From UHGV virus genome UHGV-0149956: DNA of 64,000 bases, one strand, 5' to 3'. Shown one piece after another: positions 15,436-51,500 of this stretch (positions within the stretch are counted from its first letter, which is position 1; each line of letters starts with the position of its first letter). A program made the position numbers and the translations under genes. The DNA is from a virus. The notes beneath the pieces were generated by a model. That model ran no database searches and had not been told where the DNA came from. It saw nothing but the letters and a program-made list of their open reading frames with translations.

Positions 15436-15452
15436 AATGCTCTAATAAATTT
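15436..15452 (+). promoter_or_regulatory. C1-repressor-type operator 17-mer
   Basis: AATGCTCTAATAAATTT versus recalled P1 consensus ATTGCTCTAATAAATTT. Confidence 0.65.
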
Positions 15453-15559
15453 GTATTTTTAAGTCGCGAATGCTATCTTTTCGCATCATATTGACCTTTT
15501 AATCGTTCAGGCTTATAGTTCCGCCGTCGTAGCAAATTCTGCGACCGGGTTTAGCAGCC

Positions 15560-15650
15560 TGAATGTTAGTGCGGACAACCGCAGATATCCGATATTGCGG
15601 TATTTTTGTGTCCGTAAAACCGCGTTACGCCCAAATTATGGTGGGGCGTG
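15560..15650 (+). ncRNA. Candidate c4-like antisense regulatory RNA region
   Basis: Structured segment (inverted repeats CGGACAA...TTGTGTCCG and CCGCAGATAT...ATATTGCGG) between the operator and icd, the expected place for c4 in an immI region; boundaries approximate. Confidence 0.3.
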
Positions 15651-15766
15651 ATGGGGAGGCTTCGGCCTGCTGGTTTCACTAACGCCAGTCTGCTAACCCC
15701 GTCACGTCCTGCCACCTGTTTAGCAGCGGGTAGCAGGTTGTTAAACCTGTTAGTGAGGCCGTAACT

Positions 15767-15988
15767 ATGGTTAATGCCAATCCTTGCGCACGCCAAGAAT
15801 TCATCTGGCGTTTCTATTCCTGTAAAAAACACCACTATCACTTCGTTATCGCAGCAACAGAAGACGAAGCACGCTCTCAATTGCCTGATGGCCCCTGCAT
15901 TTTTACTGCCCGTTTTTCAACTAACTCGCGCAATTCACTTAGTTACTGGAGCCTCCCCTTCTCTGCCGACGTTCAGGGGGGTTTATGA
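15767..15988 (+). CDS. icd: Icd-like small protein
   Basis: 73-aa ORF whose stop overlaps the ant start (ATGA). Confidence 0.5.
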   Translation: MVNANPCARQEFIWRFYSCKKHHYHFVIAATEDEARSQLPDGPCIFTARFSTNSRNSLSYWSLPFSADVQGGL

Positions 15989-17019
15989 AAACACCTCTCG
16001 TCACCCGTAATGAAATAGCCGAAGCGATCGCCTTGCATACAATCTGTATGCCGACACGGGAGATCCCCGGCGCAATTGCCAACTATTTCATGATAACCAG
16101 GCGTTTTTATACCCGAACAGATAAGGCTGTGATCAACAGGCTACTGATAGCCGAGATCAGGGATTATTTGATTGAACAAGGACGTCTACGTTACGCAACA
16201 GTGGCAGCAGAAATGAGAAAGGAGGCACATAGAATGACCGGTAATAATTTAAATGTTGAAAAACCAGCACCTGTTGCTTCAGCTACGCCAGCACCAGCCC
16301 TGAATGTCATCCCCAACACCGGAGACACAATCGACAGCCAAACATTGTTGAAGATGGTCAATGAGGCACGGAAATTATGTAGCGAAAAACCAGTTCGCAA
16401 CAATGATTTCATTGCCAGAGTTAAGGATGAGCTTGAAGGAGAAACCTACGAAATTTTCGTAGGTCAAAAAAACGGCGCAGAAATAGATATTATAACCATG
16501 ACCTACAAACAAGCCCTGCGAGTTGCCGCGCGCGAGTCAAAAGCGGTCCGCCGTTCGCTGATCGACAAACTGGAAGAATTACAGCAGGCAAACTCCCCTA
16601 CCCCATCGATCCCCCAAACATTACCAGAAGCCCTACGCCTGGCTGCCGAGTTGGCAGAACAGAAAATGCATCTGGAACAACAGCTGGTGGCCGCAGCACC
16701 TAAAGTCGATTTTGCCGACCGGGTATCAGTGGCTAATGGAATCCTGATCGGTAACTTTGCAAAGGTCGTTGGACTTAAGCAAAACGCCCTTTTCTCATGG
16801 TTGCGCCAGAACGGCATTCTCATGGCTTTTGGTGCGCGCAAAAACGTACCGCGCCAGCAGTACATTAACGCCGGGTATTTCACGGTGAAAGAAGTGGTGC
16901 TGGATGATGAAAATGGCTATCAGATACGGCTGACGCCACAATTAACGGGTAAAGGCCAGCAGTGGTTAACTCGCAAGCTACTTGATGCTGGTTTGTTAAA
17001 ACCAGTAGCAATAGGTTAA
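15985..17019 (+). CDS. ant1: Antirepressor (Ant-like, KilAC-type C-terminal domain)
   Basis: 344 aa; C-terminal block LPEALRLAAELAEQK...GKGQQWL shared with KilA; SD AGGGGGG before ATG. Confidence 0.6.
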   Translation: MKTPLVTRNEIAEAIALHTICMPTREIPGAIANYFMITRRFYTRTDKAVINRLLIAEIRDYLIEQGRLRYATVAAEMRKEAHRMTGNNLNVEKPAPVASATPAPALNVIPNTGDTIDSQTLLKMVNEARKLCSEKPVRNNDFIARVKDELEGETYEIFVGQKNGAEIDIITMTYKQALRVAARESKAVRRSLIDKLEELQQANSPTPSIPQTLPEALRLAAELAEQKMHLEQQLVAAAPKVDFADRVSVANGILIGNFAKVVGLKQNALFSWLRQNGILMAFGARKNVPRQQYINAGYFTVKEVVLDDENGYQIRLTPQLTGKGQQWLTRKLLDAGLLKPVAIG

Positions 17020-17097
17020 CAAAAGAAAAAAACCTGCCAGCAAACTGGCAGGTTTCTGAGCAGATCGTCCAACCCGATCTGGATCGAGTCAGAAAAA

Positions 17098-17114
17098 TTT
17101 GCTCTAATAAATTT
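17098..17114 (+). promoter_or_regulatory. C1-repressor-type operator 17-mer upstream of kilA-repL
   Basis: TTTGCTCTAATAAATTT. Confidence 0.6.
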
Positions 17115-17183
17115 CGTTTTCTAAGTGCAAAGAATCACCATTTCGAGCTGGTGATTGAAGGTTGATGCAAATTTGGAGAAAAA

Positions 17184-49342: not shown

Positions 49343-49359
49343 ATTGCTCTAATAATTCC
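49343..49359 (+). promoter_or_regulatory. C1-operator-like 17-mer (left member of inverted pair)
   Basis: ATTGCTCTAATAATTCC, 14/17. Confidence 0.5.
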
Positions 49360-49367
49360 ATATTTTT

Positions 49368-49395
49368 AAAACGTGATGTACACTCATCACGTTTT
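49368..49395. terminator. Perfect 11-bp-stem hairpin, bidirectional terminator candidate
   Basis: AAAACGTGATG-tacact-CATCACGTTTT, flanked by A/T runs on both sides. Confidence 0.55.
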
Positions 49396-49408
49396 TTATT
49401 AGAGCAAT
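49392..49408 (-). promoter_or_regulatory. C1-operator-like 17-mer (right member of inverted pair)
   Basis: Reverse complement reads ATTGCTCTAATAAAAAA, 14/17. Confidence 0.5.
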
Positions 49409-49642
49409 CCATAAGGTGCACTATGTGGCCATTCCGACGGAAATATCACTACTGGCTGATCGCCTTTGTTACGCCGACCGGCGGTATCAGGCATGTCATC
49501 ACCAGGTATCGCAACAAGAGACTCACCTTAGCCAGAATTTTACAGGCTGCCATAGGTGAGGGACTGGATACAAATTGCGTAGTCCTTCCTCCTTCATACT
49601 TAGGAAAAATGACCGAAGCACAAGCTAATACGGAACTTTGAA

Positions 49643-50905
49643 ATGAGCACTTCAGCACAAAACCAATCAATCGAAAATGTATCTATCCCTGATGTCCTGA
49701 ATGCCGGTATCCCGGCCATTATCCAGAACATCCGGGCCGCGCAACGCCGCGTTAGTTGTGATGACCTCACAGCACGTTTTTTTGATAATGCGGTTCAGTC
49801 AGCGGAGATGCTTCACGCACAGCTTATTGATGTTTATAACGCAGAAGCTGATAGCCATAACTCCCTGGTAGATGCAGCTGAAAATATGCAGTTGGATCTC
49901 GGTCTGAAGGGTAAAGAAATTGAAGAGCTTCATCTGCAAATTGAACATTTGAAACGCCAGCAACAGGACGCGATCGACGATGCGACGCATGACGCCAACC
50001 AGCGTGCTGATAATGCCGAACGTATAAGCATTGAGCTGGAAACAAAACTCAATGAAATGACCGCGATGGTTGAACTGCGGAACTCACAGATTTCAACGCT
50101 AAAATCTCAATATAAAGAGATCATGAAACTTGATCCTTTTAACCTTGAGAAACGCTATAACAAAGCTAAAAGCGAGCGACAGGAACTGCGTAAGCAGGTC
50201 GCCGACCTTAACCAACAGCTCAAAAAAACTATTAAAGATGCAAGCGAGGCGCGCGTGGCATTTGCTAATAAAAAAGCAGAGGTTACCGCGCTGGTTAATG
50301 AGAATGCCAAATTTGCGACGCTCAAGAAGGAAATGTATGGCATTACTGAGCGCCGTTTCCCTGCAAGCAAACTCCATCCGACGTTAGGGCAAATCTCATT
50401 CTTCCCGCGCCTCCTGGCTTATGGGATCTCATCGCCTAAAGAGTTCAATAACGAGCGTCCTTATATCGTTTCTAAGCTGGACTTTGCTTATCAGTTCTGC
50501 TGCGACATGGGCTATGCCATTGATATCCGTATCAACGAATGGTTGATGCCAAACTTCCAGCCGTTGGCAATTTTCCGCGAGTTCCAGCCGGAAGGTTGGG
50601 TAGAGTTCTTCCATGAATTGATCTGTAAAGAGATGGAAAGCCGCCGCCCGGAATTGGTCCGTCGAGTTGAGTGGGCGCAAGAGGTTATGTTGGCAGATGC
50701 AGAGCTGCCGTTCGAACCGGAATTCATTGATGATCTGGCAACTAAAGGGTTGCATACCCTGTTTGATGTGGTTACCCGCCGTCATGAGCAGTTGGTTGTC
50801 GAATTGGGTTTAGAGGAAACAGCGGCAAGAAGACTTCTCGATGTTTGCTATGCACGTAGCGATGCATGGGAAAAAGAGAACGGCGGCACTATTTACGTTC
50901 GCTGA
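49643..50905 (+). CDS. Coiled-coil protein, probably C1-controlled
   Basis: 420 aa; central heptad-rich region; downstream of the operator pair. Confidence 0.4.
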   Translation: MSTSAQNQSIENVSIPDVLNAGIPAIIQNIRAAQRRVSCDDLTARFFDNAVQSAEMLHAQLIDVYNAEADSHNSLVDAAENMQLDLGLKGKEIEELHLQIEHLKRQQQDAIDDATHDANQRADNAERISIELETKLNEMTAMVELRNSQISTLKSQYKEIMKLDPFNLEKRYNKAKSERQELRKQVADLNQQLKKTIKDASEARVAFANKKAEVTALVNENAKFATLKKEMYGITERRFPASKLHPTLGQISFFPRLLAYGISSPKEFNNERPYIVSKLDFAYQFCCDMGYAIDIRINEWLMPNFQPLAIFREFQPEGWVEFFHELICKEMESRRPELVRRVEWAQEVMLADAELPFEPEFIDDLATKGLHTLFDVVTRRHEQLVVELGLEETAARRLLDVCYARSDAWEKENGGTIYVR

Positions 50906-50977
50906 TAGTTACAGTGTCACTTTTAATGCTGGTGGAGTGCGCCCACCAGCATTTTTTTCGTCCAATGAGGAGGGCAT

Positions 50978-51484
50978 TTGAGTATTTTCAATAAACACGC
51001 ACACCAGGAACGTCCGTACATCGTCATAGTAGATATTGATGGGACGATATCAGAGGCAACGGAAGACAGGCTGCATTTACTTCCACCACCTGGCAAAGGT
51101 GCATTAACAGAGCACTGGAACGAGTTTAACCTTGCCTGTGACACTGATGCTCCCATCACTCCAGTTATTGATATGGTGCGCCAGTTGTCCGGCATTTACA
51201 CCCTCTGGTTTGTAACCGGGCGCTGTGAGATAGCCAGGGATAAAACACGAGCCTGGTTGCGTAAGCACGTAACAAACGGGGCTGAGCCTTTGCTATCTAT
51301 GCGTCCTGCTACCGATGATAGAAATGACGGCCCAGCAAAGATTGATCTCCTTAAGAAAATTGGTCTAAGTAAAATCGCGTTCGCGCTGGAAGATAAGATT
51401 GAAGTGGCGCGTGTTTTCAGGAGTCACGGCGTACTTACGTTAATGGTCAGGGAGTATGAAAACGCGCTTCTCCATCAACAATAA
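50978..51484 (+). CDS. HAD-superfamily phosphatase-like protein
   Basis: HAD motif I IVIVDIDGTIS near N-terminus. Confidence 0.45.
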   Translation: MSIFNKHAHQERPYIVIVDIDGTISEATEDRLHLLPPPGKGALTEHWNEFNLACDTDAPITPVIDMVRQLSGIYTLWFVTGRCEIARDKTRAWLRKHVTNGAEPLLSMRPATDDRNDGPAKIDLLKKIGLSKIAFALEDKIEVARVFRSHGVLTLMVREYENALLHQQ

Positions 51485-51500
51485 TTGCTCTAATAAATCT
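51484..51500 (+). promoter_or_regulatory. C1-repressor-type operator 17-mer
   Basis: ATTGCTCTAATAAATCT, 16/17. Confidence 0.6.

Follow-up and report, generated by a model that had tools for sequence, protein, structure and literature searches.

The stretch of DNA analysed here, which we call the window, comprises 64,000 nucleotides (nt) of the UHGV virus genome UHGV-0149956, and all coordinates refer to the whole window. Judged from its sequence, the element is a P1-like plasmid-prophage (a phage-plasmid) in which several modules have been swapped. By BLAST, window positions 12519-64000 are collinear with positions 45000-89617 of Escherichia phage P1 (AF234172), in blocks of 95-99% identity; the comparison used the P1 record from coordinate 45000 on and covers that part of the window. 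A megablast search with positions 30000-40000 returns P1 (98.0% identity, 91-93% coverage), together with P7 and other Punavirus records. Dispersed along this backbone are copies of an asymmetric 17-base-pair (bp) motif with the consensus ATTGCTCTAATAAATTT, in which positions 3-5 and 7-11 are conserved. Our subject is the nature of these copies and the genes that stand behind them.

We score each copy in two ways: by its number of mismatches to the consensus, and by a weight matrix built from the 17 operators annotated in the P1 record, with which both strands of the window were scanned. Ten sites stand out, and they are listed here under their operator names.

15436 to 15452, plus strand: Op51 (Oc4), AATGCTCTAATAAATTT; 1 mismatch, 25.3 bits; P1 48140-48156, annotated there as 'monovalent C1-controlled operator Oc4'.
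17098 to 17114, plus strand: Op53 (OrepL), TTTGCTCTAATAAATTT; 1 mismatch, 23.9 bits; P1 49810-49826.
32053 to 32069, plus strand: Op68 (Odmt), ATTGCTCTAATAAATAT; 1 mismatch, 25.8 bits; P1 65145-65161.
35575 to 35591, plus strand: Op72a (Obana); 0 mismatches, 27.3 bits; P1 68667-68683, and identical to Op(ban[a]) of P7.
35586 to 35602, minus strand: Op72b (Obanb), ATTACACTAATAAATTT; 22.2 bits; P1 68678-68694, minus strand.
45719 to 45735, minus strand: Op82 (O26), ATTGCACTAATAATTTT; 24.6 bits; P1 78528-78544.
46626 to 46642, minus strand: Op83 (Oppp), TATGCACTAATTAATTT; 18.5 bits; P1 79435-79451, from which one base differs (position 1).
49343 to 49359, plus strand: Op86a (OpmgRa), ATTGCTCTAATAATTCC; 3 mismatches, 23.2 bits; P1 82152-82168.
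49392 to 49408, minus strand: Op86b (OpmgRb), ATTGCTCTAATAAAAAA; 3 mismatches, 21.6 bits; P1 82201-82217.
51484 to 51500, plus strand: Op88 (OpmgT), ATTGCTCTAATAAATCT; 1 mismatch, 26.3 bits; P1 84293-84309.

When at most three mismatches are allowed, the window contains nine matches (15436, 17098, 32053, 35575, 49343 and 51484 on the plus strand; 35586, 45719 and 49392 on the minus strand), compared with 0.32 expected from 100 dinucleotide-preserving shuffles, whose maximum is 3. The exact consensus occurs once, at 35575. The weight matrix recovers these nine matches and adds 46626 on the minus strand, giving ten sites that score between 18.5 and 27.3 bits and carry zero to four mismatches. 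Below the lowest of them, at 18.5 bits, the next score is 12.9 bits, which falls inside the range of a null distribution generated from first-order Markov sequences. That is, at 15 bits or above we observe 10 sites and expect 0.43, at 8 bits or above the numbers are 23 and 17, and at 5 bits or above the window holds about 65 sites, the same number as the null sequences; scores below about 13 bits are equally frequent in the null. The core GCWCTAATWA has nine copies in the window, compared with 0.47 expected, and is found nowhere in it except at operator sites. The next-best matrix positions, at 60860 (minus strand, 12.9 bits), 25089 (minus strand, 11.6), 51359 (11.2) and 28644 (11.1), we reject: they lie away from promoters and in the chance range, the null mean being 2.4 sites at 12 bits or above, and the first of them falls in the 3' end of a minus-strand open reading frame.

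A preliminary description of this DNA had listed eight motif copies and had proposed a scan with a matrix made from known P1 operators. Seven of the eight positions are exact (15436, 17098, 32053, 35575, 49343, 49392 and 51484); the eighth, 37098, has six mismatches and scores 4.0 bits. The proposed scan does separate real sites from background, with ten at 18.5 bits or more and the next at 12.9, and the motif is indeed more frequent than AT-rich DNA would lead one to expect. The list was not complete, however, since it lacked Op72b (35586, minus strand), Op82 (45719, minus strand), Op83 (46626, minus strand) and a truncated Op55 (18863).

All ten sites lie in collinear blocks of 96-99% identity and coincide with protein_bind features of AF234172 that are described as 'phage repressor C1 ... 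C1-controlled operator', and the same operators are annotated in the P7 record. According to notes in the P1 record, Op68, Op82 and Op88 are the same as operator sequences deposited separately. Base identity with P1 holds for nine of the ten, and Op83 has a single difference. Over the 131-nt contexts of the operators we count about 29 substitutions relative to P1, one of which is inside an operator; the context of Op68, for example, has nine, of which eight fall in the 50 nt upstream, one falls downstream, and none falls in the 17-mer. The annotated P1 -35 and -10 hexamers are likewise unchanged in the window, with the exception of the -10 of predicted promoter PpmgN, near Op83.

Annotated sigma-70 promoters are overlapped or abutted by the operators. 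The 3' end of Op51 overlaps the -35 of P2c4 (15450-15456); Op53 includes the -10 of PkilA (TCTAAT, 17103-17108), whose hexamers are conserved relative to P1; and the -35 of Pdmt (32069-32074) begins on the last base of Op68. The TTGCTC of Op72a serves as the -35 of P1ban, as that of Op86a does for PpmgR. Op82, flanked by minus-strand gene 26 and plus-strand pmgL (45793), overlaps the predicted -35 of P1pmgL and -10 of P2pmgL, and Op88 includes the -35 of P2pmgT, again TTGCTC, with the P1pmgT -35 beginning on its last base. Some operators are paired: Op72b is inverted and overlaps Op72a by 6 bp, the two forming the bivalent ban operator, and Op86b is inverted at a distance of 49 bp from Op86a, 15 nt upstream of pmgR (49423). 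Because the ten sites overlap or abut promoter hexamers, bound C1 would bar RNA polymerase. A simple consensus promoter scan of the window did not recover the annotated P1 promoters.

A more distant comparison is provided by Cronobacter phage JK004 (MZ188976), the one diverged relative returned by a tblastn search with PmgS (69% identity); its HrdC and Uhr are 73% and 63% identical to those of the window. The JK004 record carries neither annotated operators nor gene names, and its genes were assigned by position and size, those for uhr, hrdC, dmt and ban also by tblastn. When JK004 is scanned with the P1 matrix, every site scoring 14 bits or more falls between genes. Just upstream of pmgR lies an inverted pair with the 49-bp spacing of Op86a and Op86b; a site abutting the stop of pap heads a plus-strand cargo array, as Op88 does; one site lies upstream of uhr, as Op68 does, and two sites in tandem lie upstream of ban, as at Op72. 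The genes that occupy the lpa, c1 and coi/cre positions also have sites upstream of them, and the one at the c1 position, unnamed and 852 bp long, has operator sites next to it. In the alignments the 17-mers stand out from diverged flanks. Other searches gave less: tblastn with HrdC and KilA for diverged P1-like phages was uninformative, both domains being widespread in unrelated phages; blastn tuned for distant relatives of the Op68 region returned only relatives of 95-99% identity; and a search with PmgS among genome contigs returned only two near-identical E. coli contigs.

We read the motif copies as operators of C1, the master repressor of phage P1, on a P1-like plasmid-prophage, ten of them intact and one (Op55) truncated; on the sequence evidence we put the probability of this reading at roughly 0.93. 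C1 binding and repression we infer from established P1 biology, as c1 itself lies outside the window. Several points weigh against the reading. The high matrix scores at the ten sites are circular, because the matrix was made from P1 operators of which nine are base-identical to the window sites and one, Op83, is a single base off; the evidence independent of this circularity consists of the search by consensus, the score gap above background and the comparison with JK004. The promoters PpmgR, P1/P2pmgT, PpmgN and P1/P2pmgL are only 'predicted' in the P1 record. Finally, the window ends at P1 89617, about 3.6 kilobases (kb) short of c1, with coi and Op94/Op99 also beyond its end, and that the element encodes a cognate, functional C1 is an assumption.

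Among alternative accounts, the first concerns position 37098, within the following unit.

35559 to 40847, plus strand: ban operon (promoters P1ban/P2ban, operators Op72a/b), from P1 and P7 annotation, transfer RNA (tRNA) calls and open reading frames; in order, a dicF-like leader, tRNA-Asn, tRNA-Thr, terB (37139-37573), a tRNA with a CAT anticodon, ban (38204-39574), a 100-amino-acid open reading frame and dbn (39873-40847).

The sequence at 37098, CGCAATCTAATAAATAT, might be a real, degenerate eighth operator that gives terB-ban a C1-controlled promoter of its own: it has the 10-mer TCTAATAAAT in common with the consensus, the start codon of terB follows 25 nt downstream, and the sequence is 100% conserved in P7. 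We consider this very unlikely. Its six mismatches include the highly conserved positions 3-5, where the TGC is lost, its 4.0 bits are at chance level, and no promoter-like hexamer pair was found near it. The terB module (37013-37604) is the P7 allele, with three differences from P7 in about 630 aligned bases, and not P1 tciA, which reads CCGCAACCTTATTTCCC at this place and so lacks the sequence altogether. The P7 sequence is identical to the window across 37098, and none of the operators that the P7 record lists stands before terB; the part of its note on Op(ban[a/b]) used here states that this operator controls the tRNA genes and the genes after them. In JK004, moreover, the operators directly precede ban. 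Because 37098 lacks a promoter pair and is unannotated in P7, and because the JK004 operators come directly before ban, we conclude that the terB-ban operon is headed by Op72, at 35575-35602, and not by 37098.

It is also conceivable that the operators are intact and yet vestigial, the C1 of this element having been lost or replaced. That c1 is outside the window and that the element is a mosaic with several swapped modules would fit such a history. Nevertheless, nine of the ten operators are base-identical to P1, and Op83 is one base off, in flanks that have drifted; a closely related contig reaching beyond the end of the window has an Op94-type site upstream of the lpa position; and the operator set of JK004 is accompanied by a gene of 852 bp at the c1 position, which has operators alongside. 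We therefore hold vestigial operators to be very improbable. Still harder to credit is the idea that the repeats are not repressor sites but simply a core that the promoters have in common (TTGCTC as -35, TCTAAT as -10). At several promoters a portion of the motif does also act as the -35 or -10 hexamer, but conservation extends over an asymmetric block of 17 bp, and four sites have the opposite orientation to the operon that follows them. The motif also occurs in either orientation and in varying register, lying on the -35 at some promoters, on the -10 at others and before the -35 at others still, which fits a protein-binding site and not a promoter element; the P1 record, too, annotates the sites as C1-controlled operators. 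The weakest account, namely that the matches are a chance AT-rich word in AT-rich intergenic DNA, can point to the low complexity of the motif's 3' half (AATAAATTT) and to 37098 as an instance of such a chance partial match, but it is refuted by the shuffle, matrix and core counts: nine matches stand against 0.32 expected, none of the 100 shuffles exceeds three, the score distribution is bimodal, the GC-containing core is confined to operator sites, and the motif is kept at equivalent positions in JK004.

If the sites are C1 operators, as we hold, then monomeric C1 occupying each of them would exclude RNA polymerase from the promoters in the lysogen. From what is known of P1 biology (PMC8546580), Lxc would strengthen C1 binding, and Coi and Ant1/Ant2 would inactivate C1, so that all units would be derepressed together. 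The units silenced by C1 would be c4-icd-ant (from its upstream promoter only), kilA-repL, uhr-hrdC-dmt and the ban operon, and likewise the pmgL group, the pmgN-ppp group, pmgR-pmgS-pap and the cargo array headed by pmgT. For annotation, the operators mark where seven or eight transcription units under repressor control begin; besides the ban operon, these are the following.

Op51 unit, plus strand, from Rfam and open reading frames: c4 antisense RNA (Rfam C4, 15634-15719), a1b1 targets (15513-15565), icd (15767-15988) and ant1/2, with ant1 at 15985-17019.
Op53 unit, plus strand, from open reading frames: kilA (17184-17984) and repL (18014-18859).
Op68 unit, plus strand, from open reading frames and P1 annotation: uhr, hrdC and dmt, to 35584.
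Op82 unit: pmgL and pmgM.
Op83 unit: pmgN-pmgO-pmgP-ppp-pmgQ, to 49341.
Op86a/b unit: pmgR (49423)-pmgS-pap, to 51484.
Op88 unit, 51679 to 60728, plus strand: an unbroken gene array whose first gene is pmgT-like.

The preliminary description had called the motif copies C1 operators, in agreement with the annotation of AF234172, and had placed each at the head of a plausible early operon. The same record bears out this placement for c4-icd-ant, kilA-repL, uhr-hrdC-dmt, ban, pmgR-pmgS and pmgT; what falls away is a terB-ban head at 37098. The further suggestion, that the operators mark which accessory genes are likely to be expressed only on derepression, was overstated, given a promoter of c4 outside Op51, a hairpin after Pban, a hok/sok cassette that is operator-less, and a c1 gene that lies outside the window. 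The promoter in question is P1c4, a second annotated promoter (-35 at 15491), downstream of Op51 and clear of it. We take P1c4 to be constitutive, as required to keep ant silent in lysogens.

The hairpin is a strong, terminator-like structure at 35766-35783 (GCCCATCTTCGGGTGGGC followed by TTTTTT) in the ban leader, about 170 nt downstream of the ban promoters. Its presence implies a short leader RNA, with the tRNAs, terB and ban in need of read-through or processing. It lies in the region that P1 annotates as 'dicF-like'; a search of the ban leader with Rfam at the gathering threshold gave no DicF match. Further along the operon, the tRNA with the CAT anticodon is tRNA-Met according to ARAGORN and tRNA-Ile2 according to the P1 record. 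The open reading frame of 100 amino acids between ban and dbn (39574-39876) lies partly in a stretch without a match in P1 (39584-39856), and this region is a small insertion in the ban operon.

Two further hairpins lie beside operators. Together Op86a and Op86b form the outer arms of an inverted repeat of 66 bp (49343-49408), which encloses a hairpin and a T-run (AAAACGTGATG-TACAC-TCATCACGTTTTTT). The enclosed hairpin is probably the terminator of the pmgQ transcript; in JK004, in one pairwise alignment inspected by eye, there are base changes in both arms of the stem, and the hairpin is still possible. Between Op88 and the start of pmgT there is a GC-rich hairpin at 51533-51555 (ACATGCCGCGCCTTGCGGCATGT), conserved in P1, with a T-run on the minus strand only. 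It looks like either a terminator of leftward transcription or a leader structure.

The array behind Op88 is about 9 kb long and ends at a terminator-like hairpin (60741-60767); over about 8.5 kb of this length megablast finds nothing that matches P1. By Pfam and PHROGs, it encodes two Ead/Ea22-like proteins, one DUF551 protein and one primase/toprim-like protein, the remainder being of unknown function. Across more than 1400 related plasmids of E. coli, Salmonella and Klebsiella its content forms a mosaic, with a coverage of 77% at most. Within the array, the weight matrix finds no operator site that rises above chance. A single Op88 heads the array in each of two E. coli plasmids whose cargo after pap differs, and neither of these arrays has an internal site of 13 bits or more. 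The variable cargo of 51679-60728, standing behind one conserved Op88, is thus most likely an early transcript of the lytic cycle.

The truncated operator is the following.

18863 to 18873, plus strand: remnant of Op55 (Orlf), its left 11 bases (ATTGCTCTAAT); 6.7 bits, compared with 18.2 in P1.

Homology to P1 stops at P1 51585, within Op55, and the rlfA-rlfB genes of P1 are replaced by about 700 bp (window 18863-19567) with a hok/mok/sok type I toxin-antitoxin cassette, whose sok RNA is recognized by Rfam at 19168-19342. The remnant is probably non-functional, and there is no operator in the hok/mok/sok cassette. An identical junction is found in phages RCS47 and vB_EcoM-673R5; the operator is full in P1 and P7. 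The hok/sok cassette and the P7-type terB module both came without operators of their own, and in the course of this exchange Op55 was destroyed.

The boundary of the hok/sok-for-rlfAB replacement inside Op55, and the single Op88 that heads mosaic cargo in different plasmids, are the basis for the idea that operators serve as junctions for module exchange in P1-like elements. We think this unlikely; if true, the scattered operators would influence what cargo such elements take up under the control of C1. As a general rule, breakpoints at operators must be rejected, as only Op55 fits: the breakpoints at 14147/15200, 37013 and 52373 are separated by 85-870 bp from whichever operator or operator-like site is closest. 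A 10-mer, GCAATCTAAT, consisting of an operator-like core with two extra bases, occurs twice (18912-18921 and 37099-37108). Such partial matches at 18912 and 37099 could be relics of exchange or weak sites assisted by a co-repressor. The duplication was found post hoc, however, and 3 of 100 shuffles reach two copies, so we treat it as chance.

The swapped modules can be seen in the megablast comparison itself, in which the stretches 14147-15200, 18873-19567, 27466-29728, 37013-37604, 39584-39856, 52373-59253 and 59596-61258 have no match in P1. The stretch at 27466-29728 is the repA/incA replication region, and its lack of a match suggests a replicon or incompatibility allele other than that of P1 (IncY). 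Plasmids related to the window are typed as IncY or otherwise.

As an observation, the operator map of this element restates the published, annotated map of P1 and is already known. The set of P1 C1 operators was mapped long ago, appears in the annotation of the reference genome and is in routine use; its recovery here therefore has little value as discovery, and is useful for annotating the element. For the operator content described by Lobocka et al. 2004 we rely on the GenBank annotation (AF234172 / NC_005856) and on citing papers. According to PMC8546580, P1 C1 binds 22 dispersed operators, and the genome map in a P1 RNA sequencing study (PMC8201110) plots C1 operator sites as a routine feature.

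Compared with known systems, the window is closest to P1 itself (AF234172 / NC_005856), with which it shares the consensus, the sequences, positions and orientations of the operators, and the bivalent ban operator. P1 differs in having an intact Op55 with rlfA-rlfB, a largely different cargo after Op88, and tciA in place of the P7-type terB. P7 (AF503408) has Op(c4), Op(rep) and Op(ban[a/b]) at equivalent positions and a near-identical terB module; unlike the window, it retains rapA/rapB and, corresponding to Op55, a complete Op(rap), and its Op(c4) differs at the 5' end (TCTGCTC...). JK004 has the same 17-mer at equivalent positions relative to the genes, including the 49-bp pair before pmgR. 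Its ban operators, however, are in tandem, 28 bp apart, as opposed to overlapping and inverted; ban follows them directly, with no block of tRNAs and terB; and the flanking intergenic DNA is largely diverged. In phage lambda, the operators of CI and Cro are symmetric, bind dimers and are grouped at two sites. Lambda and the P1-type system have in common a prophage repressor that occludes early promoters, but the sites of the P1 type are asymmetric 17-mers, scattered over the genome at many operons.

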